Assembly: GCA_040753475.1 (NCBI GenBank)
Contig: JBFMED010000073.1
Location: 1-34,494 of the forward strand
DNA: 34,494 nt
Direction of reading: 5' to 3'
Source of the DNA: a bacterium
GTDB taxonomy: Bacteria; UBA9089; UBA9088
The notes beneath the pieces were generated by a model. It worked only from the letters and a program-made list of their open reading frames with translations. It had not been told where the DNA came from and searched no databases. The position numbers and the translations under genes are program-made. This document shows, in pieces, positions 4,112-30,307 of the stretch. Positions within the stretch are counted from its first letter, which is position 1. Each line of letters starts with the position of its first letter.

Positions 4112-4141
4112 TTGACAGGAATGACAAAGAAAAGGAATAAT
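4112..4141 (+). promoter_or_regulatory. Putative promoter of the cysteine desulfurase gene: TTGACA-N18-AATAAT, with the -10 ending 7 nt before the ATG
   Basis: TTGACAggaatgacaaagaaaaggAATAATaatcaagATG. It lies back to back with the pckG promoter. Confidence 0.4.
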
Positions 4142-4148
4142 AATCAAG

Positions 4149-5760: not shown

Positions 5761-5770
5761 ATTAAGGTAA
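5740..5770 (+). repeat. Direct repeat copy 1 (TACATTGACAATAGAGGGTAAATTAAGGTAA), which contains a TTGACA-N18-TAAAAT promoter-like sequence
   Basis: Matches 6473-6503 in 29 of 31 positions. Includes the stop of the iscU-like gene. Coordinates are aligned to the ORF track (+/-1). Confidence 0.8.
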
Positions 5771-5785
5771 AATGGCAATATCTAT

Positions 5786-6480: not shown

Positions 6481-6503
6481 CAATGCAGGGTAAATTAAGG
6501 TAA
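6473..6503 (+). repeat. Direct repeat copy 2 (TACATTGACAATGCAGGGTAAATTAAGGTAA), which contains TTGACA-N18-TAATAT and is the likely thrS promoter
   Basis: The HEPN stop TGA lies inside the TTGACA. The -10 TAATAT lies at 6501-6506. Confidence 0.75.
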
Positions 6504-6523
6504 TATTATTTAGCTAATCAGAA

Positions 6524-6617
6524 TTGGATTTTAGGAATTTAGGATTTATAAATTTAGGATTTAGAAATTTTTTTCAATTGTTTTAAATCTTAAATCCTAA
6601 ATCTTAAATCCTAAATT
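6524..6617. repeat. Palindromic array of 7-8 nt tandem repeats (TAGGATT/AGGATTT on the left, TAAATCY on the right)
   Basis: Left arm 6526-6570 and right arm 6584-6617 are imperfect reverse complements built from heptamers. Preceded by TATTTAGCTA (6507-6516). Ends 6 nt before the thrS ATG. Confidence 0.8.
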
Positions 6618-6623
6618 ACTTAT

Positions 6624-8324
6624 ATGGAAGCATTTTGGCATTCTACCTCGCATATAATGGCATCTGCTGTTTGCAAGTGTTTCAAGGATGTGAAGCTTGG
6701 GATTGGTCCTGCTATAGCAGAGGGATTTTACTATGATTTTAGCTGCTCAATCACAGAGGATGACCTTGTAAAAATAGAGGAGGAAATGAGAAAAATTATA
6801 AAGGAAAACCTTCATTTTGAAAAAATTACAATGACAAAGGATGAGGCAAAAAAATATCTTTTAAAGGAGGGTCAGAGCTATAAGCTTGAAATTTTGGATG
6901 AAATCAAAGACAATGAGGTTTCATTCTTCCAAAATGGCGATTTTATTGACCTTTGCAAGGGTCCACATATTGAAAGAACAGGCGAAATTAAGACATTTAA
7001 GCTCTTAAGGCTGGCAGGTGCATATTGGAGGGGCAACGAGAAAAACCCAATGCTTACAAGGATATATGGCATCTCATTCAAAAGCAAAAAAGAGTTGGAT
7101 GACTATCTTGCAAAGATTGAGGAAGCAAAGAAAAGGGACCACAGGGTTTTGGGAGAGCAATTGGGCTTATTTAACATCTATGATGAGGTGGGAGGTGGTC
7201 TTATCTTCTGGCATCCAAAGGGAAATATTTTAAGGGATGAGATTATCAATTTTCTAAAGAGAGAGCATAGAAGGAGGGGGTATCTTGAGCTTGCAACACC
7301 ACACATTGGAAAGAAATCCCTCTGGGAGACATCTGGTCATTGCGATTATTACAAGGAGAATATGTATTTTATAAACAAAGATGATGAAGATTATGTCCTA
7401 AAGCCGATGAATTGCCCCTGCCATATTATGGTTTATAAAAGCACAATAAGGAGCTATTCTGAGCTTCCCTTAAGGTTCTTTGAGCTTGGCACGGTTTATA
7501 GATATGAAAGGTCTGGTGTCCTTCATGGGCTTTTAAGGGTTCGTGGATTTACTCAGGATGATGCTCATATATTTTGTAGAAAGGATCAACTTAAGGATGA
7601 AATAAAGGGTGTTTGCAAATTTGCCTTTGATATGCTCTCCTCTTTTGGCTTTAAGGAATATAATCTCTACCTTTCAACTAAACCAGAAAAATATGTTGGC
7701 TCTGATGAGATATGGGAGATGGCAACCAATGCATTAATGGATGTTTTGCAGGAGGAGGGTCTTAATTGGACAGTTGATGAGGGAGAGGGTGTATTTTATG
7801 GACCAAAGATTGACATAAAGCTCAAAGATGCACTGGGAAGGGCCTGGCAGGGCCCTACAATTCAGGTTGATTTTAATCTACCAGAGAGGTTTGATATTTC
7901 TTATATTGGAAACGATGGAGAAAAGCATCAGCCTGTTATGATACACAGGGTTGTTTTAGGAAGCCTTGAGAGGTTTATTGGTGCCTTAATTGAGCATTAT
8001 GCAGGAAAGCTTCCCTTATGGCTTTCTCCAATTCAAACAAGGATATTGCCAATCACAGACAATCAGCTTGATTATGCAGAAAAAATAGAAAAAATGCTTT
8101 TGGATTGTAAGATAAGGGCAGAAATAGACATTAGATCTGAAAGGCTACAAAGAAAGATAAAGGATGCCCATAATATGAAGATTCCATACCTTGCAATTGT
8201 TGGAAACAAAGAAAGTGAAGAGGAAAAGATAAGCTTAAGGCACAGGGAAAAGGGAGATATCGGCTCTTTTTCAATCCCTGATTTTATAGCCCTGCTTAAA
8301 AAAGAGATTAAAGAGAAGGGATGA
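6624..8324 (+). CDS. thrS: Threonine--tRNA ligase, lacking the N-terminal TGS domain
   Basis: WHSTSH (HxxxH editing-domain motif) at residues 5-10, NCPCH, YRYERSGVLHGLLRVRGFTQDDAH (class II motif 2), GPKID, HRVVLGSLERF (motif 3), C-terminal anticodon-binding region. An in-frame stop lies 9 nt upstream of the ATG. Confidence 0.9.
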   Translation: MEAFWHSTSHIMASAVCKCFKDVKLGIGPAIAEGFYYDFSCSITEDDLVKIEEEMRKIIKENLHFEKITMTKDEAKKYLLKEGQSYKLEILDEIKDNEVSFFQNGDFIDLCKGPHIERTGEIKTFKLLRLAGAYWRGNEKNPMLTRIYGISFKSKKELDDYLAKIEEAKKRDHRVLGEQLGLFNIYDEVGGGLIFWHPKGNILRDEIINFLKREHRRRGYLELATPHIGKKSLWETSGHCDYYKENMYFINKDDEDYVLKPMNCPCHIMVYKSTIRSYSELPLRFFELGTVYRYERSGVLHGLLRVRGFTQDDAHIFCRKDQLKDEIKGVCKFAFDMLSSFGFKEYNLYLSTKPEKYVGSDEIWEMATNALMDVLQEEGLNWTVDEGEGVFYGPKIDIKLKDALGRAWQGPTIQVDFNLPERFDISYIGNDGEKHQPVMIHRVVLGSLERFIGALIEHYAGKLPLWLSPIQTRILPITDNQLDYAEKIEKMLLDCKIRAEIDIRSERLQRKIKDAHNMKIPYLAIVGNKESEEEKISLRHREKGDIGSFSIPDFIALLKKEIKEKG

Positions 8325-9832
8325 AAATCGCATCGTCTAGTGAGATAAAAGAGATAGATAAAAAGGCAGGCGAATTGTATAACATCTCTCCCCTCATTTT
8401 AATGGAAAATGCTGGCATATCAGCATTTAATCTTTGTGTTTCAACCCTGAAAGAGATTGGGGGAAATAGGGTTGTTGTTTTTTGTGGTCCTGGAAATAAT
8501 GGAGGAGATGGCCTTGTTGTGGCAAGGCATTTATTTATCAAGGGATTTGATGTTAAGATTTATCTTGTAAATGGAAAAAAACAAAGACTTGAGAGAAAGA
8601 TAAACCTTGAGATTGTAAGAAAGCTTAACATCCCAATAATAGAGGAATTTGAACAAGCTGACCTTTTTGTTGATGGCTTGCTTGGAACGGGTATAGCAAA
8701 AGAGCCAGAGGGGAAAATAAGGGATTGCATTGATTTTATGAATTCTTCTGATAAAACCATTATCTCCCTTGATATTCCATCCGGGCTTTCCTCTGATTCT
8801 GGATTTTCCCTTGGATGTGCCATTAAAGCAGATAAGACAATAACCTTTGGTCTTCCAAAGATTGGCCAGGTTTTATACCCAGGCGTAGAATATGTTGGAA
8901 AGCTATATCTTTCAAGGATTTCCCTGGCCGATGAATTAAGTAAAGACATAAAGATAAACCTTTTAACTGGCTCTGAAATGGCAAGCCTTCTTCCTAAAAG
9001 ACCTTTAAACTCACACAAGGGCAATTTTGGTAAGATTCTTGTTATCGCAGGCTCGGTGGGAATGACCGGTGCGGCAACCTTATGTTGTCAGGGTGCGATG
9101 AGTATGGGAGCTGGTCTGATTTATCTTGGAATTCCAGAAAGCTTAAACGATATAATGGAAATTAAGCTTACCGAGGTGATCACAAAGCCCCTGCCAGAGA
9201 CAAAGAAAAGAACACTCTCTCCCTCTGCATACAATGGAATTATAGAGCTGGCAAAGAAATGTGATGTTTGTATAATTGGACCTGGCATATCAAGACAGGG
9301 TGAAACAAAAAAGCTTATCCAAACCCTTGTTTCAAGACTTACCATCCCCATAATCCTTGATGCAGATGGAATTTCGGCAATTTCTCCTCAAGAAATTTCT
9401 GGAAAGAATATTTTAATTACGCCACACCCAAAGGAATTGGCAGATTTTGTTAAAATAAATGTAGATGAAATTCAAAGGGATAGAATTGGAATTGTCCAAA
9501 GGGTAATGGATGAATATAAAATTTCTATCCTCCTTAAAGGATTTAGGACACTAATTGGCTACAATGGGCAAATTTACATAAACCCAAGTGGAAATCCAGG
9601 AATGGCAACCGGTGGCACAGGTGATGTTTTATCTGGAATGATTGGCTCTCTGGTTGGTCAGGGTTTAAATCTTGGTGATTCTGCTTGTCTTTCTGCCTTC
9701 CTTCACGGCTTATCAGGCGATATAGCAAAGGAGGAAAAGGGAGAATATTCCCTTATTGCATCCGACCTTATAGATTTCCTTCCTTGGGCTATAGATGAAT
9801 GTAGAGAAAAATACAATGTGGAGGGGATATAA
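8321..9832 (+). CDS. nnr: Bifunctional NAD(P)H-hydrate repair enzyme (epimerase/dehydratase, YjeF family)
   Basis: N-terminal GPGNNGGDGLVVARHL and C-terminal GGTGDVLSG kinase-fold motif. ATGA overlap with the thrS stop. Confidence 0.85.
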   Translation: MKIASSSEIKEIDKKAGELYNISPLILMENAGISAFNLCVSTLKEIGGNRVVVFCGPGNNGGDGLVVARHLFIKGFDVKIYLVNGKKQRLERKINLEIVRKLNIPIIEEFEQADLFVDGLLGTGIAKEPEGKIRDCIDFMNSSDKTIISLDIPSGLSSDSGFSLGCAIKADKTITFGLPKIGQVLYPGVEYVGKLYLSRISLADELSKDIKINLLTGSEMASLLPKRPLNSHKGNFGKILVIAGSVGMTGAATLCCQGAMSMGAGLIYLGIPESLNDIMEIKLTEVITKPLPETKKRTLSPSAYNGIIELAKKCDVCIIGPGISRQGETKKLIQTLVSRLTIPIILDADGISAISPQEISGKNILITPHPKELADFVKINVDEIQRDRIGIVQRVMDEYKISILLKGFRTLIGYNGQIYINPSGNPGMATGGTGDVLSGMIGSLVGQGLNLGDSACLSAFLHGLSGDIAKEEKGEYSLIASDLIDFLPWAIDECREKYNVEGI

Positions 9833-9847
9833 AAATGCAAAGATTAA

Positions 9848-10022
9848 AATGTCTGTATGTATTTAGCTAGGTGAGAATAAAATGGAAAATAGGCACTTAA
9901 GGCACAGAGGCACAGAGTTTATTTGTTACTTGCTTTCTTTGTGCCTTTGTCCCTTTGTTCCTTTGTGCCTGTTTACGTCCCTTTGTGCCTAGCTATAGGG
10001 TAGCTAAACACATACAATGTCT
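9848..10022. mobile_element. MITE-like non-autonomous element with 15-bp terminal inverted repeats, internal inverted octamer arrays and a 7-bp flanking direct repeat
   Basis: AATGTCT | GTATGTATTTAGCTA (9855-9869) ... TAGCTAAACACATAC (10001-10015) | AATGTCT. Inside are AGGCACWK octamers (9891-9917) and the complementary CTTTGTSC octamers (9937-9990). No ORF. Confidence 0.6.
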
Positions 10023-10042
10023 GTTGTCTGTCTTCTTAAAAT

Positions 10043-11320
10043 ATGGGAAAAACATTAGCTTGTAAAATATTATCTAAAAAGGCAGAAAAAGGGGTAAGCC
10101 CTGGCGAATTTATAGAGATAGAGCCAGATATTGCCTTGGCTAATGATGTTACCGCCCCTCTTGCCATTAAGGAATTTAAGGCTACAAATAAGCCTTTGGC
10201 ATTTCCAAACAGGCTTGTTTTGGTCTCTGACCATTTTGTTCCCGCTAGGGATATAAGGTCGGCAAATCAGGCAAAGATTTTAAGGGATTTTGCAAAGGAA
10301 TACAATATCAAACATTATTTTAAGGAGGGTTCTGGAATTGAACATTGCCTATTGCCCGATGAAGGTATTGTCCTTCCTTCTGATGTTGTAATTGGTGCGG
10401 ATTCCCATACCTGCACATACGGTGCATTAGGTGCATTTTCAACCGGTGTAGGTTCAACCGACATTGCCTATTTTATGGCAACAGGAAAAATATGGCTTAA
10501 GGTTCCTGAAAGTATGAGGATTGTCTTCAAAGGAAATCTAGCCAAATATGTCTCTGGAAAGGATTTGATTCTCTATACAATTGGAAAAATTGGGGTTGAT
10601 GGAGCAAATTATATGAGTATGGAATTTTGTGGAGATGCAATAAAAAGCCTCTCTATGGCGGGTAGATTTACAATGTGCAATATGGCAATTGAGGCAGGAG
10701 CAAAGGCGGGAATTGTTGAGCCAGATGAGAAGACGATGGAATATGTAAAGAATAGAGCACCAGAGCAGCCTACTAGCACCAGAGCACCAGACTATAAAAT
10801 ACATAAAGCTGATTCTGATGCAGAATACAAAGAAACATATGAGTTTAATTGCAGTGATATAGATTGCCAGGTAGCCTTGCCACACCTTCCGTCAAATACA
10901 AAGTCTGTAAAGGAAGTAGGCGATATTAAAATAGACCAGGCATTTATTGGCTCTTGCACAAATGGAAGGCTTGATGATTTAAGAATCTCGGCAGAAATCT
11001 TAAAAGGGAAAAAAATAAATCCCGATATCAGGCTTATCATAATCCCAGGAACACAAGAAATTTATAAAGAGGCGATAAAAGAGGGATTGATTGATGTATT
11101 CATTGATGCAGGCGGGATTATTTCCTGTCCTACCTGTGGCCCCTGCCTTGGTGGCCATATGGGTGTATTGGCAGATTTTGAAAAATGTATCTCAACCACG
11201 AATAGGAATTTTATAGGAAGGATGGGAAGCCTGAAGGGAGAGGTCTATCTGGCAGGTTCTGCTGTGGTTTCTGCTTCTGCGATTACTGGAAAGATAACCC
11301 ATCCCAATGAAGTAATATGA
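10043..11320 (+). CDS. leuC: 3-isopropylmalate/homoaconitate dehydratase large subunit (short, archaeal-type)
   Basis: Aconitase-family cluster ligand contexts DSHTCTYGALGAF, GSCTNGR and CGPCLGGH. About 420 aa. Confidence 0.85.
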   Translation: MGKTLACKILSKKAEKGVSPGEFIEIEPDIALANDVTAPLAIKEFKATNKPLAFPNRLVLVSDHFVPARDIRSANQAKILRDFAKEYNIKHYFKEGSGIEHCLLPDEGIVLPSDVVIGADSHTCTYGALGAFSTGVGSTDIAYFMATGKIWLKVPESMRIVFKGNLAKYVSGKDLILYTIGKIGVDGANYMSMEFCGDAIKSLSMAGRFTMCNMAIEAGAKAGIVEPDEKTMEYVKNRAPEQPTSTRAPDYKIHKADSDAEYKETYEFNCSDIDCQVALPHLPSNTKSVKEVGDIKIDQAFIGSCTNGRLDDLRISAEILKGKKINPDIRLIIIPGTQEIYKEAIKEGLIDVFIDAGGIISCPTCGPCLGGHMGVLADFEKCISTTNRNFIGRMGSLKGEVYLAGSAVVSASAITGKITHPNEVI

Positions 11321-11781
11321 TTGAAGGAATTGCTTATAAATTTAGGGATAATATAAATACGGATGAGATAATCCCAGCCACCTACCTTGATACAACAGAC
11401 GAAAGGGAGCTTGGCTGCCATTGTATGGAGGGAATTGAAGGAGGAACTAGGATAAAAGAGGGAGGAATTATTGTCTCTGGCTCTAATTTTGGCTGTGGCT
11501 CATCAAGGGAGCATGCACCCCTTTCTATAAAGGGAAGGGGGATAAGGGCAGTTATCGCAAAATCATTTGCCAGGATATTCTTTAGAAATAGCATAAATAT
11601 CGGGCTTTTTGTCTTTGAATGCAAAGAGGCTGATGATATAGATGGAGGAGATAAATTAAGAATATTGGAAGACAAGGGAATAATAGAGAATAGGACAAAG
11701 AATAAAACCTATAAAATAATGCCCCTTCCAGAATTTATGCAAAGAATCATTAGAGCCGGTGGCTTGATGAGGTCGCTATGA
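11317..11781 (+). CDS. leuD: 3-isopropylmalate/homoaconitate dehydratase small subunit
   Basis: NINTDEIIPA and GSNFGCGSSREHA. ATGA overlap with leuC. Confidence 0.85.
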   Translation: MIEGIAYKFRDNINTDEIIPATYLDTTDERELGCHCMEGIEGGTRIKEGGIIVSGSNFGCGSSREHAPLSIKGRGIRAVIAKSFARIFFRNSINIGLFVFECKEADDIDGGDKLRILEDKGIIENRTKNKTYKIMPLPEFMQRIIRAGGLMRSL

Positions 11782-12266
11782 TTCTTACCATAAAAAGATA
11801 CGGAAATCCCATATTGAGAAAAGAGGCATCGGATGTCAGAAAAATAGATGAGAAAATAAGAAAGATAGCATCTGATATGATAGAAACGCTCATTGCTGCT
11901 AATGGTCTTGGTCTTGCGGGAAATCAGGTTGGTATTTTGAAAAGAATAATTGTTGTGCGAATAAAAGAAAAGCCATTTGTCATTCTTAATCCAAAGGCTA
12001 TAAGCACAAGCGGAATTGTTGAAGAGGCATCTGAGGGTTGCCTGTCCTTTCCTTCCTTATTTGGCAATGTCCAAAGGGCTTTTACTATTACATTTAGGGG
12101 GCTTAATATAAACGGTGATGAGATTACAGGAGAGATAAGTGGATTACCTGCAAGGGCAATTCAGCATGAAATAGACCATCTTGACGGCATTTTGTTTATT
12201 GACAGGATGGATGAAAGCGAAAGAAAAAAGCTATTGGCTTTGTGGAGAAAGATAAAAATTACTTAA
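11778..12266 (+). CDS. def: Peptide deformylase
   Basis: GLAGNQVG, EGCLSFP and QHEIDHLDG are the three deformylase motifs. Confidence 0.9.
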   Translation: MILTIKRYGNPILRKEASDVRKIDEKIRKIASDMIETLIAANGLGLAGNQVGILKRIIVVRIKEKPFVILNPKAISTSGIVEEASEGCLSFPSLFGNVQRAFTITFRGLNINGDEITGEISGLPARAIQHEIDHLDGILFIDRMDESERKKLLALWRKIKIT

Positions 12267-12646
12267 GTCAAACATTTAATCCATATCTCCCTTTCCCTTG
12301 GTCCATCAAACTCACACAAAAATATCCTCTGCCATGTTCCCAAAACAAGCCTTTTATCCTTTACAAAAATAGAGAGAGAAGAGCCAATAATGGATGCCTT
12401 TATGTGAGCATCGGAGTTTCCCTCACTATGACGGAAATATGGGGAATCCCTTTTGATAATATTTGAAAGGCATTTTATGATATCAGAACAAACCTCTGGG
12501 TCATATCCTTCGTTTATGGTTATGGCACAGGTTGTATGGGGAACAAAGAGGTAAATAATGCCATCTTTATCTATTTCTCCTTTAATTTTTTCTGTAATAT
12601 CAACAAAAACCTCCCTCTTTGTTGTCGCTACATTTATAATCTTCAT
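12263..12646 (-). CDS. yjbQ: YjbQ/UPF0047 family protein (secondary thiamine-phosphate synthase)
   Basis: HTTCAITINE and GNSDAHIKASIIGSS. Confidence 0.75.
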   Translation of the reverse strand: MKIINVATTKREVFVDITEKIKGEIDKDGIIYLFVPHTTCAITINEGYDPEVCSDIIKCLSNIIKRDSPYFRHSEGNSDAHIKASIIGSSLSIFVKDKRLVLGTWQRIFLCEFDGPREREIWIKCLT

Positions 12647-15905: not shown

Positions 15906-16244
15906 TTAAGGATAGTAATGGCAAGAAAAGCATAATGGCTTTGCTCCAACAAAATTATGGCATCTGTTGCAAAATTCATCCCTATTTTTATGACATTCCC
16001 TACAACTTGTCAAAGTAAAAGAGCCCCTTATTCCCTCTCTCACCACCTTATCCCTTGCCTCTTTTAATAAATTCATATGGCTTGCCCTCATAACATTTCT
16101 CTCCTTTAGACATCTTCCCTTTGGAAGCTTTATCTCTGGCTCTGGAATTTTATCACTTATTCTTCCTCCCATAACATTTAGCACGAATGGGAAAGAGAAA
16201 ACCACCAAGAAAACTATCAAACCACCTATAACTAATTTATACAT
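15906..16244 (-). CDS. DsrJ-like triheme cytochrome c, second copy
   Basis: N-terminal TM anchor and three CxxCH motifs (CRECH, CNRCH, CFSCH). 57 of 77 hand-aligned C-terminal residues are identical to dsrJ at 32807-33121. The ATG at 16244 overlaps the qmoC stop by 8 nt. Confidence 0.75.
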   Translation of the reverse strand: MYKLVIGGLIVFLVVFSFPFVLNVMGGRISDKIPEPEIKLPKGRCLKERNVMRASHMNLLKEARDKVVREGIRGSFTLTSCRECHKNRDEFCNRCHNFVGAKPLCFSCHYYP

Positions 16245-17382
16245 CCCTATTATATTGTTTGGCATAGATAATGGCGATTGTGCGATAGACAAAATGGGCA
16301 AACTTTGAATATGGTGCGTAACATAAGAGAAAGAATACAGAGAGAAGGTGGATAAAATATAAGGGATAGGAAAGAATGGGTATATTCGCCCATCTTGTAA
16401 CCATTGTCAATGCTCCACAGGCAATTATTATATACAAAATAGCGATCAAAAGCCAATCAAAGTATCCACCAAGGCTATCCTTCTGGTTAATTCTGTTAAA
16501 GATTACAAGGTTTAGCCCAATGAACATAAGGATTACACCGCTATAGCCTATAAAGTTCATAATATAGGTAAGGGAATAGGAAAAACCTTGAGAAATTAGC
16601 TCTATGGGATAGAAAAACAAGAACAAATACAAATTATGGAATAGGCATATGGGATAAAACCCCTTTTTTTGCAATATCTCTAAATAAAAAATCCCACTTC
16701 CTGCTGTAATTATGAGAAGGACAAAGCCATAGAATATACATAGATGGGCATAATATCTTAATTTGTTTGTATTGCACTTTTTGAATTTGGAGTGAAGCAA
16801 TATCTCAGTTATTGTAGAGAAAATAGCCTTTATAAGACTTCCCTTTTCACCTTCCATCTTAACGCCACCTAAAAACCTCTTTATTCCTATAATAAACGAA
16901 ACAAGGCTAAAGCCAATCCCTATTGTAAAGAGTCCGCTAAGATGTAAGGGAGAAATAAAATCAGAAAAGAGAATCCCATCTTTCACATTTCTTGTCAAGG
17001 CTAATAAGATTATTAAGGGAAATCCAATAATAAGGGGAAGATACCTTGCTTTGTTGAGAAAATTTGCCAGGAATTTTGGAAAGGAATAGCTAATAATCGC
17101 AAGCCTCCTTATGGCAGAGATAACCTCACCTGGCTTTACTCCCCTTGGGCAATAGGCGGTGCAATCACCACATTGATGGCAGAGCCAGATGTCTAAATTA
17201 TTAAAGAGCTTGTCGGAAAGACCCCATTGGGCAAAGAAAATCTCCTTTCTGGGAAATGGCTTGTTTTCTGGCGAGATATTGCAAACAGCGGAACAGGTTG
17301 CACACTGAAAGCACTTCTTTAAAGAGCCTCCACCCGATGAAATTATCTCATTTATAAGCTTAATATCAGGTTTTATAATCAT
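16237..17382 (-). CDS. qmoC: Quinone-interacting membrane-bound oxidoreductase subunit QmoC (HdrC-like Fe-S domain fused to an HdrE-like cytochrome b)
   Basis: CFQCATCSAVCN and CHQCGDCTAYCP, followed by at least 5 TM helices. Positioned after qmoAB. Confidence 0.85.
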   Translation of the reverse strand: MIIKPDIKLINEIISSGGGSLKKCFQCATCSAVCNISPENKPFPRKEIFFAQWGLSDKLFNNLDIWLCHQCGDCTAYCPRGVKPGEVISAIRRLAIISYSFPKFLANFLNKARYLPLIIGFPLIILLALTRNVKDGILFSDFISPLHLSGLFTIGIGFSLVSFIIGIKRFLGGVKMEGEKGSLIKAIFSTITEILLHSKFKKCNTNKLRYYAHLCIFYGFVLLIITAGSGIFYLEILQKKGFYPICLFHNLYLFLFFYPIELISQGFSYSLTYIMNFIGYSGVILMFIGLNLVIFNRINQKDSLGGYFDWLLIAILYIIIACGALTMVTRWANIPILSYPLYFIHLLSVFFLLCYAPYSKFAHFVYRTIAIIYAKQYNRDV

Positions 17383-17751
17383 TTAATCGCCTCTTGCAAC
17401 CATCCGGATAAAATCGGTTGAGGTAAATATACCAAGCCTATCTTTACCCTCGATAACAATTCTGTGGAATCCATTCCTGTGCATATAGATTGCTGCCTTT
17501 TTTGAATCCATCTTTCCTGCCTCATCTATTGAAACTGTCTCAAGCTGCCTCTCTTTGCAGAATTCTGTTAATTTCTGTGGTGATTCCCTGTCATGCTCAG
17601 TGATTATCCCTATGGTATGGCCATTCCTATTTACTATCAAAAGACAACTCTTTCCTAAATCCCCCATCTTTTTTAAGGCATAGCTTACACTCTTATTCCA
17701 ATCTACCGTTAATAGACCCTCAAATGTTGCATAATCTACAATTGACTTCAT
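17383..17751 (-). CDS. Stand-alone CBS-pair domain protein
   Basis: 122 aa with two CBS-like halves (...LLIVNRNGHTIGIITEHD... and ...RIVIEGKDRLGIFTSTDFIRMV). There are no intergenic bases on either side: the qmoB stop ends at 17752 and the qmoC ATG is at 17382. AAGGGG SD lies inside the qmoB 3' end. Confidence 0.75.
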   Translation of the reverse strand: MKSIVDYATFEGLLTVDWNKSVSYALKKMGDLGKSCLLIVNRNGHTIGIITEHDRESPQKLTEFCKERQLETVSIDEAGKMDSKKAAIYMHRNGFHRIVIEGKDRLGIFTSTDFIRMVARGD

Positions 17752-19980
17752 CTAAAACCCCTTATATGGATTAGGACCAATCGCCTTTACCTTTTCAATA
17801 AAGCTTTCTATCATCTCTGGTATCTTGGGATAGTCTGCAATAGAGGTCTCCACCAGAGAAACCCTCTCTGCCTCAAGCCTAAGACGGTCAAGCGTTTCTT
17901 GGACTTTAGAAAGTCTATACTTTGCCAACTCGCTCCCCTTGATAAAATGGCATTGATAATCCTCGCCCAGCTTACAACCAATGAGCAAGATTCCGTCAAT
18001 TCCCTTTGACAGGGCATCGGTTACCCAGACAAGGTTCAGGCAACCAAGGCACCTTATGGGGATAAACCTTACCAAAGGGCTTATATTTTTTCGCATAATC
18101 CCTATGGTATCCAAAGCAGGATAGGCATCGTTTTCACAGGCAAAGCATAAGAATCGCATCTGGTTTTCATCCTCTGGAACATAAATAGATTTTATCATTG
18201 AGCTTATAATATCAATACTAAAGTCCTTAAATGAGACAATCCTTTCTGGGCAGGCACCCAGGCAGGTTCCGCACCTCCTGCACCTATTTGGCTTAAAGTA
18301 GGGAATCCCCTTCTCGTCCTCATCAATTGCTCCAAATGGACATTCATCGGTGCATCGCTTGCAAGCTGTGCACCTTTGCAGGAATGCCTCAGGATAGGTC
18401 ATATCCCATGCCCTTGGATGAACCGCAATCCCTTTTGCTACCTGTTCAATGCATTGTATGGCCTTTAAAGCTGCACCACCTGCATCTTCTATACATTCAC
18501 CTATATTCATTGGTGTCCTTACACATCCGGTAGAATAGACCCCGGTTCTCCTTGTCTCATAGGGAAAGCAGATAAAATTGGAATCCACAAACCCCAAGGC
18601 TTCTTCAAAAAGGGGAACCTCAGGTCCCTGCCGATATTTTAGGTTTAAGATAAAATCAGGTTTTTTTGTTTCATTTATATAGCTTGCCTTTGCCTCATCT
18701 CCCTTTAAGGCTGCCTTTGATAGACCATCAAGATAGCAAAGTGCATCCTTTGTTGAGGGAAGCATCCCTATGGCAAGGACAACAAGGTCTCCCTCAACCT
18801 CAATTACCTCCCCTAAAAGTGTATTCTCTGCCTCAAGGATGAGGCTTTCCTTCTCTTTCTTTATTGCCTTAACATCTGCCTTTGTCAATAAAATCCCAAT
18901 ATCCTCCTGGGTCTTCTTGTAAAAAAGCTCATATTGGGCGGGTGTTCTCATATCTTTATAAAAAATATAGGCAATTGAATTTTCATCCTTTTCCCTGATA
19001 TATTTTGCCTGTTTTAAAGATGTTAAGCAGCAATATGATGAGCAATAGGGTAGATGCTCTTTATCCCTAGAGCCAGCACATTGGATAAAGGCAACCCTTT
19101 TTACCGCCTTTCCATCCTTTCTTAAGAGCTTACCCTGCTTTGCCATCTCCTCAAACTCAATGTTTGTAATTACATCAGGATATATTCCATAGCCAAGATG
19201 AGAAAGCTTTGATGCATCATAGGGCTTAAATCCCGAGGCTAAAATAACAGCCCCTACTTTTCTTCTTATTTCCTCATCCTTTCTTTTTATTGAAACATCA
19301 AATACCCCAGGTTGTCCTTCAATGCTTTCTATCTCTGAATTTATTAAGACCTCAATATTTGGATGCTCATTAACTTTTTTTATCTTCTCAAAAACAATTG
19401 GTTCTCTTATTTCCTCATAGGGATATTCTGTGGGAACTTGCTTGTATAGCCTTGCTGAATACCCACCAAGGTTGTTTTCTTTTTCCACAAGGATTGTCTT
19501 ATACCCACAATCTGCCGTCTCAAGGCTGGCGGTTAATCCACTTATCCCACCACCCACAACCAGAATAGCCCTTTCTATATTTTCTTCTATATATGGCTCG
19601 GGAATATTCTGCTTAATTGCCTTAGTGATTCCCATTTTAAGATAGTCTTCGGCAATTAGCTGGGTATCTTCTCTCTTTGGTGGCTGGCAAAAAACACAAA
19701 GCTCCCTTATATTCACCCGCTCAAGGATACAATTTGGGAAATTAAACACCTCGGACTTTACCCTTCCTGAACATCCTGCAATAACCAATGTGTTTATCCC
19801 CTCCTTCTTTATATCCTCCTTTATTAAGGCAATCCCTTCATTGCATAGGACAGGGGATAGCTTAAATGATGTAATAGGAAGCTTTGTCTCCTTTGAGGCT
19901 TTCTCTATCAGCCTTTCTAAATTCAAGGATTGCTCTATACTACACCCCTTACAGATATAAATGCCTATCTTCTTATCCAT
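17752..19980 (-). CDS. qmoB: QmoB (HdrA-like flavoprotein with ferredoxin and MvhD-like domains)
   Basis: VVGGGISGLTAS FAD motif, CTACKRCTDECP and CRRCGTCLGACP, 742 aa. Overlaps the qmoA 3' end by 16 nt. Confidence 0.9.
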   Translation of the reverse strand: MDKKIGIYICKGCSIEQSLNLERLIEKASKETKLPITSFKLSPVLCNEGIALIKEDIKKEGINTLVIAGCSGRVKSEVFNFPNCILERVNIRELCVFCQPPKREDTQLIAEDYLKMGITKAIKQNIPEPYIEENIERAILVVGGGISGLTASLETADCGYKTILVEKENNLGGYSARLYKQVPTEYPYEEIREPIVFEKIKKVNEHPNIEVLINSEIESIEGQPGVFDVSIKRKDEEIRRKVGAVILASGFKPYDASKLSHLGYGIYPDVITNIEFEEMAKQGKLLRKDGKAVKRVAFIQCAGSRDKEHLPYCSSYCCLTSLKQAKYIREKDENSIAYIFYKDMRTPAQYELFYKKTQEDIGILLTKADVKAIKKEKESLILEAENTLLGEVIEVEGDLVVLAIGMLPSTKDALCYLDGLSKAALKGDEAKASYINETKKPDFILNLKYRQGPEVPLFEEALGFVDSNFICFPYETRRTGVYSTGCVRTPMNIGECIEDAGGAALKAIQCIEQVAKGIAVHPRAWDMTYPEAFLQRCTACKRCTDECPFGAIDEDEKGIPYFKPNRCRRCGTCLGACPERIVSFKDFSIDIISSMIKSIYVPEDENQMRFLCFACENDAYPALDTIGIMRKNISPLVRFIPIRCLGCLNLVWVTDALSKGIDGILLIGCKLGEDYQCHFIKGSELAKYRLSKVQETLDRLRLEAERVSLVETSIADYPKIPEMIESFIEKVKAIGPNPYKGF

Positions 19981-21249: not shown

Positions 21250-22071
21250 TCATAAATGGATTCCCTTTTGTCTTGCCCTTCTGGAAAGTTCATAAGAGCG
21301 ATAGAGCTTTATGTGTGGATGTTCTTTTTTAAGATGTGCCTCTACATTAGGATGGATTGAATAACAAAGGATGAGGGGAAATACATCGGCTTTTAAGTAA
21401 TTTCTTGCCCTTTCAATAACCTTTGAAAAATCTTTAATATCATTTTTTCCTATGCTTGCTTTAGATTCTCCAATGATGTATATTTTATTTCCATTCTGCC
21501 TTGCCTCGGCATAGATATTTATCTCATCCTCACCACCCTCGGGATAGATAAAGAATCTCCTCTCAAATTCTTTTTCTATCTCAATTCCAAAATCCTTCTT
21601 TAACACATAAGGAAAGATGGAGTAGTATTTTTCCTCAAGCTCATAGCCAATGGTATTTGATATGCCACCTAATCTTTGGTCTGTTTTTTCCTGGGCAATG
21701 GCAAGCTTTTCTAACCTCTGTTCTGTTCTTTTCTGTGCCTCGGCAAGCTCTTCTACCCTTTGCTCTGTCCTTTTCTGTGCCTCGGCAAGCTCTTCTACCC
21801 TTTGCTCTGTCCTTTTCTGTGCCTCGGCAAGCTCTTCTACCCTTTGCTCTGTCCTTTTCTGTGCCTCTGCAAGCTCTTGCAAAGCTTTATCAAGCCTGCC
21901 TACCTCCTTCTGGGTTTCTTTCTGGGCCTCGGTAAGCTCTTTCTGGGCAATGGCAAGCTTCCTTACCTCATTGGTAAGGAGGTTAAACTCTTCCCTATCT
22001 ACCCTTATACCCTTTGTTTTTTCCTCTACAATGGTTTCTATTGTTTTATAAAGCTCAAGATCTATAGCCAT
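21250..22071 (-). CDS. Coiled-coil protein with a C-terminal PD-(D/E)xK-like (restriction-endonuclease-fold) domain, function unknown
   Basis: [14 protein letters not shown] repeats form a long heptad-rich helix. The C-terminus has GGEDEINIY...[14 protein letters not shown] (D...ExK). I start it at MAIDLE (22071), because the track's TTG at 22107 is part of a TTGACA -35 box. Confidence 0.6.
21739..21864 (-). repeat. Three perfect 42-bp tandem repeats, flanked by degenerate copies
   Basis: ctcggcaagctcttctaccctttgctctgtccttttctgtgc occurs three times with no mismatch. It encodes [14 protein letters not shown]. Confidence 0.95.
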
Positions 22072-22077
22072 ATTTTT

Positions 22078-22107
22078 ATTATAACCTTTAGGCCAATCTT
22101 CTGTCAA
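22078..22107 (-). promoter_or_regulatory. Consensus sigma70 promoter TTGACA-N18-TATAAT, with the -10 ending 6 nt before the ATG at 22071
   Basis: Minus strand reads TTGACAgaagattggcctaaaggtTATAATaaaaatATG. Confidence 0.55.
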
Positions 22108-22195: not shown

Positions 22196-24136
22196 CTAAA
22201 CCACCAGCTGCTTATACTCTCTTTTAAAGATCTCAAACTTTCCGGTTTGGCTATTGTATTTGGAATTGACAAAGCATTTCCAATTACTATCATCAATCTT
22301 GGGAAAATCTGCTCTATAATAATAGCCAGGATACCTTGTCTCCTCCCGAAAGAGCATATGCCTGATATGAGCCTCAGCGGTTAAGATTCTATGCCTGTTT
22401 TCCCAGGCCCTCATCAGCTCATGGAGGTTTTCTGCCGCTAATCTATCTGAATCCTCCTTTGCCATTTCCAATAGCTCTAAGCCCTTTTCCATCATTGTTC
22501 TGCTCGTGATATACCAGGTGCTTACCCCTCCCGCATACTCATCCATAATCTTCATCACCCTTGGCTGTAATTGCTTTGGTCTAATATAATTGGGGTTTAT
22601 ATCAGCCGCGGTAGTATAGCCCTTGTATTTCTCATAAAGCTCAAAGGGAAGGCAGATCTCTTTGGCAAATTCCTCAATTGGCTTGGTGATGGTCGGGGTA
22701 AACCCGGAATGGTCAAGACAAAAGGCAACCATTGCTTTTGCCGCAATCCTTCCATCGGCATGTGAGCCAGATGAGAATTTATGACCCGAGGCACCTACGC
22801 CATCGCCGGCGGTGAATAGCCCCTTAACGGTTGTCATTCTATTATAGCCCCATTGCCATTCAGGGGGTGCGATGTCAGATGGCCCACTTACCCAAAAGCC
22901 TGAACAAGCGGCATGTGAACCAATAAAGTATGGCTCGGTAGGCATCATCTCAGATGGCTTTTCCTCTGGAGCAATATTATTGGTTGCCCAAACACCTGCT
23001 TGGGCAATGGTCATATCCAGAAAATCCTCCCAGGCGGCATTTTCCATCTCCTTTGCCAATTTTGCATCCTTTGCCCTCATTGCTTGAATAGCATCCTGTG
23101 TATGCATAAAAACAGGACCCTTTCCTGCCTTTAGCTCCTCAATCATTTGGTGGTTCCTTAAGCAGGTGGGAACCGGCTTTATATCGCAATATGGGGCATA
23201 TTGCTTGATTACCGGGGATTGGGTATAATCCTCACCTAAAGCATTGGTTGCCTTGCATTTTAAATAAAGGAAGAATGTTCCCACCGGGCCATAGCCATCC
23301 TTAAACCTGGTTGGAACAAATACATTCTCCATCATAGTAAGCTCTGCCCCTACCAGAAGCCCCATTGTGGTAGTTGAGCTTGAATTCCATACTGGATACC
23401 AGGTTCTTCCTAAACCCTCATCGGTTGCCCTAGGTCTATAGGTATTTACGCCGCCACCACAGGCATTAAGCACAACCTTTGCCTTAAAGAGGTAGCACTT
23501 GTAATCCCTGACAGAAAAACCAACCGCGCCAGCAATCCGATTATCCTCCTTCTCATCAAGGATGAGATGGGTAATAAAGACCCTCTCGTATAAATTTTGT
23601 GCCATCCCTGTCTTTTCTCGGTTGTATTCCAATACCTTCTTTGCTGCCTCGGCTACAATAACTTTGTATGACTCTCCGCTAATCATTGCCTGCCATCTGC
23701 CTGAGCGAACACACCTTGCCCCATCCCCAAGTTTTTTCTCCTCCTCTCCCTCGTTTTTCCAGAGGGGAAGCCCCCATTCGTCAAAGAGATAGACAGAATC
23801 ATCAACATGCCTTCCGATATCATAGACAATGTCCTCCCTGATTATACCCATTAGGTCTCCACGCACATAATTGACATAGTCTTCTACTGTATTTTCACCC
23901 ACATTTAAGCCAATGTAGGTGTTTATGGCAGAAAGACCCATTGCCACAGTGCCTGAGCGGTCTAATGCCGCCTTATCCACTAAGGTTACCTTTATTCCCT
24001 TTGGTGTTGCCCATCTGCAAGCCTCATAAGCTGCACCACAATTAGCCATTCCACCACCGACAAGCAGAATATCTGTCTCTATTGTTTCCATTTCTGGTGG
24101 CTTGGCATAACTAAATATATTAACCTCTTTTTCCAT
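22196..24136 (-). CDS. aprA: Adenylylsulfate (APS) reductase alpha subunit
   Basis: ILLVGGGMANCGAA FAD motif, 646 aa, immediately downstream of aprB. Confidence 0.92.
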   Translation of the reverse strand: MEKEVNIFSYAKPPEMETIETDILLVGGGMANCGAAYEACRWATPKGIKVTLVDKAALDRSGTVAMGLSAINTYIGLNVGENTVEDYVNYVRGDLMGIIREDIVYDIGRHVDDSVYLFDEWGLPLWKNEGEEEKKLGDGARCVRSGRWQAMISGESYKVIVAEAAKKVLEYNREKTGMAQNLYERVFITHLILDEKEDNRIAGAVGFSVRDYKCYLFKAKVVLNACGGGVNTYRPRATDEGLGRTWYPVWNSSSTTTMGLLVGAELTMMENVFVPTRFKDGYGPVGTFFLYLKCKATNALGEDYTQSPVIKQYAPYCDIKPVPTCLRNHQMIEELKAGKGPVFMHTQDAIQAMRAKDAKLAKEMENAAWEDFLDMTIAQAGVWATNNIAPEEKPSEMMPTEPYFIGSHAACSGFWVSGPSDIAPPEWQWGYNRMTTVKGLFTAGDGVGASGHKFSSGSHADGRIAAKAMVAFCLDHSGFTPTITKPIEEFAKEICLPFELYEKYKGYTTAADINPNYIRPKQLQPRVMKIMDEYAGGVSTWYITSRTMMEKGLELLEMAKEDSDRLAAENLHELMRAWENRHRILTAEAHIRHMLFREETRYPGYYYRADFPKIDDSNWKCFVNSKYNSQTGKFEIFKREYKQLVV

Positions 24137-24139: not shown

Positions 24140-24580
24140 TTACCTCCCTATTGTTGGCAGGGTTTCACCCCTGGCTTGCTGGGTAAAGAACCCAGGCTCT
24201 TTTATCCTTGCGTAATCAGGCTCGCCCTTTCCTCCATAAGGGTCAATTGAGCCCTCTGGCGTTGTCCTTATCGGGAATTTAAACCGCTTAAGCCTTCCAT
24301 CCCTGAACTTAATCGTCCACATTATGGAATCAGAGCCCCTTAAGGGAATAACGCTTCCACCCAAGGGGTTAAAATCCGTATAACCCCTTACCTCTATAGC
24401 CTGCTGGGGGCATATCTTAACACAATTGTAGCACTCCCAACATTGATTAGGCTCCTGGTTATGAGCCTTCATCTTCTCTCTATCCAAGACCAAAAGGTCA
24501 TTTGGGCAGATATACTGACAGGCAGTCTTATCCTGTCCCTTACAACCATCGCATTTCTCAGCGATTACAAAACTTGGCAT
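24140..24580 (-). CDS. aprB: APS reductase beta subunit
   Basis: MPSFVIAEKCDGCKG...CQYICP and CWECYNCVKICP. I start it at 24580 (AAGGGGG SD), downstream of the sat stop. Confidence 0.9.
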   Translation of the reverse strand: MPSFVIAEKCDGCKGQDKTACQYICPNDLLVLDREKMKAHNQEPNQCWECYNCVKICPQQAIEVRGYTDFNPLGGSVIPLRGSDSIMWTIKFRDGRLKRFKFPIRTTPEGSIDPYGGKGEPDYARIKEPGFFTQQARGETLPTIGR

Positions 24581-24596
24581 TTTTTTTACCCCCTTT

Positions 24597-25814
24597 TCAT
24601 ATTTTTCCTTCTGCATGCTTATGCAACTCTATTTCTATTTTTTTATCACAGGATTTATAATATTCCTTTAATATTTCCAATACCTCGGGTCTACTAAAAT
24701 GCTCGGGAATCTCTTTATCCTCAGACAATAGCTTTCTCAGCATTGTTCCACTCAAGATAACCCGGTCGGAAACATCGTGTGGACAGGTCTTGGTTGTCGC
24801 CATACCATCGCATTTCTTACAATAAAAGGTTATGTCAATCTTTAATGGCTTTATCTCCATCGCATCAGCAGGTATCTCATCAAATATCGTTTGTGCATCA
24901 TAAGGGCCATAGTAATTGCCAACCCCGGCATGGTCTCGGCCAACAATAAGATAGGAACATCCATAGTTCTGTCTAAATAAGGCATGCAGCAATGCCTCCC
25001 TTGGACCACCATATCTCATCTCCATCGGATAGCCACCCTGAATGCAGGTATCCTTAACAAAATAGTCTTCAACCAAAGCCTCAATTGCCTTAACCCTTAC
25101 CTCTGCGGGAATATCACCCTCCTTTAGTTTTCCCAACAATTGATGGATGAATACACCATCAGAGATCTCAATGGCTATCTTTGCCAGATATTCATGGGCT
25201 CTGTGCATCGGGTTTCTTAATTGCAATGCCGCTACCTTGCTCCAGCCCTTTTCTTCAAAGATTTCCCTTGCCTCACTAGGACGCAGGTAAAGCCCTTTGT
25301 AAGCCTTGGGATAATAGCTTTCGGAAAGAACCCTTACCCTACCTGCAAGATTTACCTCCTCCTGTGATAAAACCTTATGCACACCAGGATGGTTAGGGTC
25401 ATTTGTTTTAAAGACCTCCTTACACTCATATTCCTTATCTATGGTATACTTTTCCTCTATCTTCATAGTTCCCATAAGCTCACCTGTCTCTTCATCAATT
25501 AGAGAGACCTCTTCTTTTATTTTTAGGCTATCAGCTTGACCTTTTGTGGTGGAAAGGGTTATGGGAATTGGCCAGAATAGACCATCCTTAAGCTTCATAT
25601 CTTTGCAGACGGCCTTCCAATCATTCTGGCCCATAAACCCATCTAAGGGTGTAAATGCACCAATCCCGAGCATAATCAAGTCTGATGTCTCTCTGGATGT
25701 CATCTTAACCTGGGTTAGAGAAGATGCCTTCTTAAGCTCTTCCTTAAGCTCCTCACCCTGTAATAATAATGGCTTTAATTCTCTCCTGCCATGTGGTTTT
25801 GGTAATTTTGACAT
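24597..25814 (-). CDS. sat: Sulfate adenylyltransferase (ATP sulfurylase)
   Basis: [11 protein letters not shown] and [16 protein letters not shown] upstream. Confidence 0.92.
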
Positions 25815-25825: not shown

Positions 25826-27453
<1,628 letters not shown>

Positions 27454-27457
<4 letters not shown>

Positions 27458-27677: not shown

Positions 27678-28745
27678 TTACTTCATCTGCGTGGTCATCC
27701 GGTAGGTGGTTAGCGAATGCCTAAAGTCATCCAAGTGATACTTGGTAAAGGAAATCCCGTTTATTTCAAAGAATTTTGGCCAGCCGATGCGTTCTATCCA
27801 TTCACAAAGACGTTCGTATTTCTTTGCATTCTTGGCATAAATTTCAACCATATTTTTAACTGCAGAAACAACCTCAGGCCACCTAGGAGGGTTGTTGGGA
27901 AGATAAGGAATTGCCAATTTTGTAAAGCTTGGGCGATTTCTTGCATTGGAGATTTTTCCTCCCACCCAGATAGACACCCCATCGTTTAATGGGTCGGCAA
28001 TCGGCATTGCCGGGCATACGGTATAGCAATTTCCACAATACATACAATTATCCTCATCTATTTCTACAGATTTCTTTCCCTCAATTATGGTTGGTCTTAT
28101 TGCTGCATTTGGACAGGAGGCAACCGTGCTTGGAATCTCGCAGATCTTGGGAAGCTTCTCATGGTCTATCTTAGGTGGTCTTCTATGAACCCCAAGTATT
28201 GCAATATCAGAGCAATGGACAGCACCGCACATATTAAGGCAACAAGCAACAGCAATTCTTAACTTGGCAGGTAGGTAGCTTTCTTGTGTAAAATATGGAT
28301 AAAGCCCATCCATTACAACCTTTACCAAACCAGAGGCATCGGTGGCAGATGAATGGCAATGAACCCATCCCTGGGTATGGACAATGTTTGAGATGCTATT
28401 CTTTGTCCCACCTACTCCAAAGCCATTGGAAGATAGCTCGCTTATCAAAGGCTCAATATTTTCTTCCTTGCCGAGCAAGAATTCAACATTATTTCGGCTG
28501 GTAAATCGCAAATATCCATTGCAATATTTATCTGCCAAGTCGCAGAATAGCCTAATCGTATCAGATGACAAAAGCCTTGGCGAGCCTGCCCGCACAGTGT
28601 AAATTTTATCCCCAGAATATGAGGTATGCACCAGAACCCCTGGCCTTAATACCTCATGATACCTCCATTTCCCATAGTTTCTCTTGATAGTTGGACAGAG
28701 AAACGCCTCATAATGGGGTGGACCAAAATCTGTCTTTCTTTCCAT
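27678..28745 (-). CDS. dsrB: Dissimilatory sulfite reductase beta subunit
   Basis: [21 protein letters not shown] and the ferredoxin insert [12 protein letters not shown]. Starts directly after the dsrA stop. Confidence 0.92.
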
Positions 28746-30306: not shown

Positions 30307-30307
30307 T

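Follow-up and report, generated by a model that had tools for sequence, protein, structure and literature searches.

A CBS-pair gene between qmoB and qmoC belongs to a small family linked to sulfate-activation and APS-reduction gene clusters

We analysed a stretch of 34,494 nucleotides of bacterial DNA (contig JBFMED010000073.1 of assembly GCA_040753475.1, GTDB lineage UBA9089; UBA9088), hereafter the window, in which a short gene for a predicted stand-alone pair of CBS motifs (a Bateman module) lies between qmoB and qmoC. The gene is part of a minus-strand cluster for sulfate activation and for the reduction of adenosine 5'-phosphosulfate (APS), in which sat and aprB lie upstream of the qmo genes. 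The features of the cluster are the following:

16237 to 17382, minus strand: qmoC, 381 amino acids, with an HdrC-like Fe-S domain and a membrane domain (NCBIfam NF038018; Pfam Fer4_8)
17383 to 17751, minus strand: CBS-pair gene, 122 amino acids, assigned as a stand-alone Bateman module (Pfam PF00571, AlphaFold2 model, Foldseek, homologues)
17390 to 17395, minus strand: AAGAGG, Shine-Dalgarno-like site for qmoC, read directly, within the last codons of the CBS gene
17752 to 19980, minus strand: qmoB, 742 amino acids, HdrA-like flavoprotein with a C-terminal MvhD/FlpD domain (Pfam FlpD, Pyr_redox_2 and Fer4; NCBIfam HdrA2-like)
17758 to 17763, minus strand: AAGGGG, Shine-Dalgarno-like site for the CBS gene, read directly, within the last qmoB codons
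19965 to 21293, minus strand: qmoA, 442 amino acids, HdrA-like by Pfam and NCBIfam
22196 to 24136, minus strand: aprA (TIGR02061, 922 bits)
24140 to 24616, minus strand: aprB (Pfam APS-reductase_C and Fer4)
24597 to 25814, minus strand: sat, ATP sulfurylase (Pfam PUA_2 and ATP-sulfurylase)

Read on the minus strand, qmoB ends in AAG GGG TTT TAG, with the stop codon at 17754-17752, and the CBS gene begins directly after it (ATG AAG TCA, with the A at base 17751). The CBS gene ends in AGA GGC GAT TAA (stop codon at 17385-17383) and is followed directly by the ATG of qmoC, whose A is base 17382. Both junctions have 0 intergenic bases, which bears out the coordinates and the seamless insertion described in an earlier reading of the sequence (the original prediction). 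The AAGGGG at 17763-17758, also correctly placed by that reading within the 3' end of qmoB, occupies positions -12 to -7 of the CBS ATG, 6 nt before the start, within the qmoB codons for K-G, and the AAGAGG at 17395-17390 occupies positions -13 to -8 of the qmoC ATG, 7 nt before the start, within the CBS codons for A-R-G. With abutting stop and start codons on both sides and Shine-Dalgarno-like sites in the upstream genes, the CBS gene is encoded within the qmo operon, and the geometry of its junctions is suited to coupled translation. Such contact between stop and start codons, with the ribosome-binding sites placed in the genes before, makes it probable that the CBS protein is translated in coupling with QmoB and QmoC. 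The names given to the flanking genes hold as well: the qmoC product scores 359 bits with NCBIfam NF038018 (cutoff 300), and that of qmoB is HdrA-like with the MvhD/FlpD domain. A search for direct or inverted repeats flanking the CBS gene, as a trace of insertion, gave only short chance matches, and the base composition of the gene is continuous with that of the adjoining genes. A promoter and terminator scan from 14.5 to 28 kb returned the same counts as shuffled sequences, with none between qmoB and qmoC, and says nothing for or against the operon structure.

Pfam finds CBS as the sole domain of the open reading frame (ORF), at 39.7 bits (PF00571, cutoff 24) and in two stretches, the best of which covers residues 19-54; this is the Pfam scan by which the CBS-pair identity was to be checked, and it confirms it. 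NCBIfam has no model specific to the protein. When the PDB was searched with phmmer, the best match was MJ1225 (E 7e-6), with residues 11-118 aligned to one whole CBS pair; the segment GIFTSTDFIRMV of the second CBS motif (CBS2) aligns with GIITSTDFIKLL of MJ1225. The AlphaFold2 model, built from the alignment of the family, has a mean pLDDT (the model's own confidence score) of 80.4 and twice the beta-alpha-beta-beta-alpha topology, with predicted strands (E) and helices (H) at E15-17, H22-32, E36-40, E46-51 and H61-67 in the first half and E72-74, H83-93, E97-101, E106-110 and H111-119 in the second. Foldseek with this model returned 245 matches in the PDB at E ≤ 1e-3, and among the matches listed all are CBS proteins, including AMPK gamma (the top match), MgtE, TA0289, MJ0922, HRP1, AcuB, CBSX2 with AMP, and the CBS domains of IMPDH. 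Since Pfam, the MJ1225 match, the AlphaFold2 model and Foldseek all agree, the ORF is predicted to encode a minimal stand-alone Bateman module, with one CBS pair in 122 amino acids.

The family to which this protein belongs is tiny and sharply delimited, and comes from an uncultured bacterial lineage. A word-indexed search of 5.8 billion protein clusters gave 17 members, the window's included, of 117-126 amino acids, and the 16 homologues are 57-65% identical to the window protein. In an exhaustive profile search of 1.84 billion representatives at 50% identity, a single one was found at E ≤ 1e-30 (212 bits), followed by a multi-CBS protein of 1083 amino acids at 98.8 bits and then by ordinary CBS proteins at 74 bits or less; the 150th best representative scores 50 bits with the profile. 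A metagenome scan with the family alignment added just 3 further loci, so the family is really rare. The threonyl-tRNA synthetase encoded in the window is 75-90% identical to proteins of metagenome-assembled genomes (MAGs) and about 57-60% identical to those of Desantisbacteria, Margulisiibacteriota and Omnitrophota; although close relatives of the host are present in the databases, these hold no CBS homologue more than 65% identical. Because the ORF passes the Pfam CBS model and has 16 homologues with 39 invariant alignment columns, it is a real conserved gene and not a chance reading frame.

The two CBS motifs map as follows:

17578 to 17718, minus strand: CBS motif 1 (CBS1), about residues 12-58, the best Pfam stretch, including GIITEHD at 17590-17610
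17392 to 17547, minus strand: CBS motif 2 (CBS2), about residues 69-120, with a shortened start, the second Pfam stretch, including GIFTSTD at 17413-17433

Ligand-competent CBS motifs are marked by a ribose-phosphate motif, G-h-h-[T/S]-x-x-[D/N], at the junction of strand beta3 and helix alpha2, and in characterised CBS domains this Gly-h-h-Thr/Ser-x-x-Asp motif holds the ribose and phosphate of adenosine ligands. Both CBS motifs of the window protein keep it, as Gly-h-h-Thr-x-x-Asp. Across the 17 sequences the family consensus GI[IV]TEHD and GIFTSTDFI, together with R97, is invariant or nearly so: in GIITEHD (residues 48-54) G48, I49, T51, E52 and D54 are invariant and H53 nearly so, and around GIFTSTD (residues 107-113) G107, F109, T110, S111, T112, D113, F114 and I115 are invariant. 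A DWN motif at residues 17-19 is also invariant, as are two cysteines, C36 at the start of strand beta2 in CBS1 and C65 in the EFC helix, together with F64. The DWN motif, the two cysteines and the shortened CBS2 set this family apart.

Besides the window, 11 family loci (given L numbers here) have a readable flank; L008, L092 and L093 were not counted, since in two of them the contig ends directly after the CBS gene and the third is too short to read. In four of the 11 the CBS gene lies on the same strand directly upstream of sat, as the first gene before it, at distances of 12 bp (L001 and L009), about 120 bp (L010) and about 300 bp (L002). In three it follows qmoC (L003/L004, at 3 bp, L006 and L007); the CBS gene of L007 is followed by a TauE gene, and in the window qmoC nearly adjoins a TauE gene. 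Two others (L091 and L094) have the CBS gene directly before a CxxCxxCC (PF03692) gene. Such genes recur in apr-qmo clusters: one lies before qmoA in L007, others after hppA in mostly Nitrospirota clusters, and one or two between aprA and qmoA in L073, L074 and L078 (labelled Deltaproteobacteria, Thermodesulfobacteriota and Pseudomonadota). With the window included, the CBS gene directly adjoins sat or qmo genes in 8 of the 12 readable loci, at three positions, and adjoins the CxxCxxCC gene in 2 more. In a neighbour-joining tree of the family, position tracks clade, one clade having the CBS gene after qmoC or before the CxxCxxCC gene and the other having it before sat; the window protein branches with those of L010, where the gene precedes sat, and L008. 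From the different positions and the tree clades it follows that the gene has relocated at least twice, mostly staying in or next to the sulfate-activation and APS-reduction cluster, and the family is genetically tied to sat-aprBA-qmoABC across these relocations.

To place the qmoB|CBS|qmoC arrangement among other qmo operons, we scanned one genome per species with the window QmoC and obtained 80 loci, mostly of Nitrospirota/Thermodesulfovibrionales, with QmoC identities of 40-48%. The window QmoB is 55-65% identical to the QmoB of these loci, and the window QmoA is 50-58% identical to that of related loci. The gap between qmoB and qmoC is 18-153 bp in 77 of the 80 junctions, and no CBS gene lies in the 3 larger ones: L015 has small ORFs, L030 toxin-antitoxin-like genes and L013 a PF03601 protein. 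This agrees with the earlier statement that canonical operons carry no gene between qmoB and qmoC, and genome papers on Thermodesulfovibrio and Thermosulfurimonas likewise describe a qmo operon of three genes. Distant CBS genes hidden in the operon inserts of L011, L013, L015 and L030 were considered and rejected, as these consist of a frameshifted qmoB, the PF03601 protein, small ORFs and toxin-antitoxin-like genes, respectively. The insert of L013 (7736-9448) encodes a 570-amino-acid membrane protein of the putative sulfate-exporter family PF03601, and toxin-antitoxin-like pairs lie between qmoA and qmoB in L001 (5828-6464) and L014 (7221-7729) and between qmoB and qmoC in L030 (2448-4450). 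The family profile detected no member in the 80 other qmo loci. The position between qmoB and qmoC is therefore found in the window only (0 of 11 other readable family loci, 0 of 80 other junctions); it is derived, unique to this contig, and a one-off rearrangement. The original prediction would have been undermined had the arrangement been without any conservation in relatives: the linkage to sat-aprBA-qmoABC is conserved, at three positions, while the exact place between qmoB and qmoC is not.

A second CBS-pair family was found in the same kind of cluster. The usual gene order in the 80 loci is sat-aprB-aprA-qmoA-qmoB-qmoC-[CBS]-hppA-CxxCxxCC, in which hppA (PF03030, about 688 amino acids; for example L017 11254-13335) is often followed by the CxxCxxCC (PF03692) gene. 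In the 71 loci with room after qmoC to read the next gene, this is a CBS gene of the second family in 25, the H+-pyrophosphatase gene in 38 and another gene in 8; L023 has a frameshifted CBS copy after qmoC that is outside the 25. An example between qmoC and hppA is L040 11141-11587. Members of this family, found in Thermodesulfovibrionales and Ca. Sulfobium among others, have co-oriented, tightly packed genes and 142-148 amino acids, score 73-107 bits with Pfam CBS, and have both ribose-phosphate motifs (G[LM]FTERD and S-x-R-D) and a conserved C-terminal tail, AE(V/N)HYLKDYI. The family counts at least 512 members, named in databases only as 'CBS domain-containing protein' or 'IMP dehydrogenase'.

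The window protein is not one of them. It lacks the tail, ending in ...MVARGD, and scores 28.4 bits with the second-family profile, against 210-242 bits for intact members, while members of the second family reach at most 30 bits with the window-family profile; overall, cross-profile scores are 14-36 bits versus more than 210 bits within each family. Comparison of the two families with hhalign gave 94.6% probability at 18% identity and a deletion of about 9 residues at the start of CBS2 in the window family, and C36 and C65 are not conserved in the second family. The exhaustive profile search contained no intermediates bridging the two families, which leaves any ancestry shared more closely than the CBS superfamily without support. 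By these comparisons the two families are not specifically related, and separate recruitment is the simplest reading, likelier than orthology.

The CBS gene is dispensable for the cluster. A closely similar cluster, L014 from Desantisbacteria, runs from sat to qmoC with no CBS gene, its Sat to QmoB proteins being 56-74% identical to those of the window and its QmoC 45%, and for this reason we regard the CBS protein as an accessory part and not as a core subunit. It is also not present wherever QmoABC is present (0 of 80 loci with the window family, 25 of 71 with the different CBS family), and because of this absence from other Qmo loci it should not be called a Qmo subunit. The suggestion of a regulatory subunit of the Qmo-Apr system stands in part. 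The conserved linkage, together with the second CBS family after qmoC in about one third of clusters, greatly raises the likelihood that the gene is functionally tied to the pathway, whereas the varied gene positions argue against a fixed architecture with a subunit between QmoB and QmoC.

In the pathway, Sat converts ATP and sulfate to APS and pyrophosphate (PPi), a step that is pulled by pyrophosphatase, and AprAB reduces APS to sulfite with release of AMP. Given this chemistry, ATP, APS and AMP are the natural signals. We propose, with a probability of about 0.5, that the CBS protein is an accessory adenylate-sensing regulator of the pathway, co-expressed with Sat, AprAB and QmoABC. It would share a transcript with QmoA, QmoB and QmoC and, as other Bateman modules do, would take up an adenosine-containing ligand in the cleft that the two CBS motifs form, with ATP, APS and AMP, which the pathway makes or uses, as candidates. 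The conformation set by the ligand would in turn act on one of the pathway proteins (Sat, AprAB, QmoABC or pyrophosphatase), so that the flux of sulfate through activation and reduction, which cost ATP, would be matched to the adenylate state of the cell. Ligand binding and modulation are what we infer here, with the ribose-phosphate motifs as the sole pointer to sensing. Sat, AprAB, QmoABC and pyrophosphatase are equally eligible as the partner; gene order cannot decide, because the gene adjoins sat, qmoC or, in the second family, hppA.

Several observations weigh against this proposal. The position between qmoB and qmoC was seen once. L091 and L094 show only the CxxCxxCC gene before the contig ends, and in L005 the CBS gene is unlinked, following an unrelated gene of 117 amino acids with no sulfur gene within 8 kb downstream. 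As CBS2 is shortened, one of the two ligand sites could be non-functional, and the invariant C36 and C65 hint at a redox or metal role beyond an adenylate model. Finally, these clusters readily gain unrelated passengers, as seen in the toxin-antitoxin-like genes of L001, L014 and L030, at qmoA/qmoB or qmoB/qmoC, and in a 285-amino-acid repeat protein encoded between aprA and qmoA in the window itself, so that insertion alone proves little. The CBS gene might then be just such a passenger, a small lineage-specific gene that is tolerated in the strongly expressed operon into which it inserted, as other young genes are in unrelated operons, and that has no role in sulfate respiration; two more inserts in the window, a DUF6036 gene and an aspartyl-protease-like gene, separate dsrP from dsrO and from dsrA, respectively, L005 is a locus in which a family member stands apart from the cluster, and in Desulfovibrio the same has been argued of DVU0851, which ends the qmo operon (PMC3125180). 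However, a passenger would not track the cluster through its relocations, as this gene does in adjoining sat or qmo genes at three positions in 8 of 12 loci and the recurrent CxxCxxCC gene in 2 more. The 39 invariant columns, the fit of both junctions to coupled translation, and a second CBS-pair family at the 3' end of qmoC in 25 of 71 clusters also speak against a mere passenger, which we consider improbable. An assembly artefact, in which a chimeric join put a foreign CBS gene into the qmo operon, is hardly credible. The contig does come from a MAG and the arrangement was seen once, but a misjoin is not expected to produce two base-exact junctions with frames kept and Shine-Dalgarno-like sites present; there are also no flanking repeats, the composition is continuous with the neighbours, and the CBS family lives in this cluster elsewhere.

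The remaining alternatives concern what the protein does within the cluster. Control in trans of Sat or pyrophosphatase, as the CBS insert of family II pyrophosphatases exerts it in cis, and not of Qmo/Apr electron transfer, would make the position between qmoB and qmoC incidental, and is a sub-case of adenylate-sensing regulation that differs only in the partner. It would suit the four loci in which the CBS gene directly precedes sat, a type to which the nearest relatives of the window protein belong, and the second family, which directly precedes the H+-pyrophosphatase gene in mostly Nitrospirota clusters and weakly matches the CBS regions of Mn-dependent diphosphatases (generic NCBIfam models). 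We nevertheless hold it to be unlikely: the window contains no pyrophosphatase gene, the CBS gene adjoins qmoC in three loci and in the window, and adjacency cannot separate partners inside one operon. Rather more doubtful is a thiol or metal role, in which C36 and C65 would form a redox switch or metal site and serve redox sensing, relay or maturation for QmoB and QmoC instead of responding to adenylates. CBSX proteins regulate thioredoxins and TA0289 is a CBS-rubredoxin protein, which are loose analogies for such a role; CBSX1/CBSX2 and TA0289 (CBS with an Fe-binding domain) are among the structural matches, the two cysteines and F64 are invariant in 17 of 17 sequences, and the adjoining genes encode HdrA/HdrC-like redox proteins of the thiol/disulfide type. 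A standard Fe-S or rubredoxin site, however, needs more than two cysteines from a monomer, and the Nitrospirota CBS family does without conserved cysteines; the canonical ribose-phosphate motifs are invariant too, so that nucleotide binding is not displaced. A further reading, which we judge to be a long shot, is that the CBS pairs are overlooked, nucleotide-gated parts of the APS-reduction machinery, docking on QmoB/QmoC or AprAB, where occupancy by AMP, APS or ATP would gate or direct electrons from menaquinol through Qmo to APS reductase, and that two lineages recruited different modules for the same job. If true, it would give a handle on how the energetically awkward electron transfer from menaquinol to APS is driven and controlled.

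An accessory adenylate sensor can be compared with several known CBS systems. MJ1225 and AMPK gamma bind AMP, ADP and ATP. The former, an archaeal relative of AMPK gamma (PDB 3kh5/3lfz), is the best sequence match of the window protein among solved structures, with a nearly identical CBS2 motif, but both have four CBS motifs in two Bateman modules, in contrast to the two motifs and single module of the window protein, which also has no kinase partner. With 122 amino acids and two motifs, the window protein is ruled out as an AMPK gamma/MJ1225-type protein. In CBS-PPases, pyrophosphatases of family II, adenine nucleotides act through a Bateman module on the removal of PPi, the reaction that pulls sulfate activation. 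Their CBS pair is inserted in, and fused with, the DHH/DHHA2 enzyme, whereas the window CBS protein is a separate polypeptide and no pyrophosphatase gene is present in the window; since this stand-alone ORF has CBS as its sole Pfam domain, a CBS-PPase regulatory insert is ruled out as well.

The stand-alone CBS pairs MJ0922 of M. jannaschii, PH0107/2yzi of P. horikoshii, HRP1/Rv2626c of M. tuberculosis and CBSX1/CBSX2 of Arabidopsis are likewise single Bateman modules of about 120-140 amino acids with no other domain. They share the predicted fold of the window protein (Foldseek probability 1.00, query-normalised TM-score 0.50-0.66) and have canonical ribose-phosphate motifs, and CBSX2 was crystallised with AMP, according to the PDB title. 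They are only 16-24% identical to the window protein, and the window family differs from them in its shortened CBS2, two invariant cysteines and DWN motif; it is tied to sat-aprBA-qmoABC, a context for which we found no report on any of these proteins. AcuB is a small CBS protein that was crystallised with AMP/ADP, according to PDB titles 9s4v and 9s4x, and its operon is tied to an AMP-forming enzyme. It offers a functional analogy for an adenylate sensor acting in trans, but it has an extra ACT domain (about 200-220 amino acids in total), belongs to an acetoin-utilisation operon with another partner, and has weak similarity to the window protein (E 0.06).

Within sulfate-reduction clusters, the CBS family between qmoC and hppA is likewise a co-oriented stand-alone pair in the sat-aprBA-qmoABC cluster, directly after qmoC, though its members are longer (142-148 amino acids), have the C-terminal tail and always occupy that single position. 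A further addition to a qmo operon is QmoD/DVU0851, a fourth, lineage-restricted gene of Desulfovibrio that is co-transcribed with qmoABC and has an unknown role (PMC3125180; PMC4045070). Its product is reported to lack homologues beyond Desulfovibrio and is described without mention of CBS motifs; it has 25.8 kDa (PMC10920352), against about 14 kDa for the window protein, and we set this identity aside on size and taxon, judging by the description of DVU0851 alone.

Dissimilatory sulfate reduction spends ATP before any is gained, and both the matching of this cost to the energy state of the cell and the drive of electron transfer from Qmo to APS reductase are poorly understood. The usual picture of the pathway includes Sat, AprAB, QmoABC and sometimes a pyrophosphatase, with no dedicated sensor. 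Here, two families of the nucleotide-sensor type are embedded in the cluster, one tiny and mobile within it, the other common in uncultured Nitrospirota, and such recurrent Bateman modules in sulfate-activation and APS-reduction clusters appear to have gone unrecognised. We found no literature linking CBS proteins with qmo, apr or sat clusters, although subscription journals lay largely beyond our search and a prior mention is possible. The interest of the gene lies at the level of the cluster more than in its exact place between qmoB and qmoC, where a familiar sensor fold is found in a pathway context that is both new and conserved. Annotations of a 'CBS domain-containing protein' beside qmoC or sat deserve notice in genome-based reconstructions of the pathway.

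Several other features of the window were noted. The 285-amino-acid ORF between aprA and qmoA (21250-22107, minus strand) occurs in no related locus; it contains a tandem repeat at 21700-21878, with 4.3 copies of a 42-bp (14-amino-acid) unit, a coiled-coil-like N-terminal half and a C-terminal domain of no confident family (weak DUF3782). At its annotated start lies a perfect 12/12 sigma-70 consensus, TTGACA-18-TATAAT (22107-22078, minus strand), and because of this site translation may really begin 12 codons downstream, at another ATG, and qmoA-C may be served by a promoter of their own. Two genes for DsrJ-like triheme cytochromes c are present, at 32807-33121 and 15906-16301 (both minus strand). 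One is in the expected dsr(M)KJOP context, and the second lies directly after qmoC, overlapping its end, with three CxxCH motifs in its product and 87 bits with the NCBIfam DsrJ model (cutoff 100). It is unusual for a qmo operon to have a gene for a periplasmic cytochrome attached to it; a similar gene lies at the start of the L073 locus, about 2.6 kb upstream of aprB.

The dsr genes (27678-34443, minus strand) are broken by small genes, encoding the DUF6036 nucleotidyltransferase between dsrO and dsrP (31528-31983) and the aspartyl-protease-like protein between dsrP and dsrA (29917-30306), and this organism's whole sulfur supercluster seems to admit insertions with unusual ease. Directly upstream of sat is a gene for a GltD/NfnB-like NAD(P)-binding Fe-S flavoprotein of 543 amino acids (25826-27457, minus strand; NCBIfam NF009410, 569 bits), which has a 61%-identical copy at L091 20-1690, about 3 kb from the CBS gene of that locus, and may be a further accessory redox gene of the cluster.

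In its left part (1-12300; hisF...thrS, yjeF, leuCD, def), the window is syntenic with a sister MAG, GCA_040753555.1 (L095; threonyl-tRNA synthetase 86% identical), in which def is followed by genes for phosphoenolpyruvate carboxykinase and a Fic protein, with no sulfur cluster at that place. The G+C content is 0.35-0.39 in this left part versus 0.41-0.44 across dsr-sat-apr-qmo (12300-34494), and the sulfur cluster may be an island that was acquired laterally or moved to this place. Between an aminotransferase gene and thrS, at 5786-6480 on the plus strand, lies a pair of genes for a Polbeta nucleotidyltransferase and a HEPN/nucleotidyltransferase-substrate-binding protein, a typical MNT-HEPN toxin-antitoxin module.

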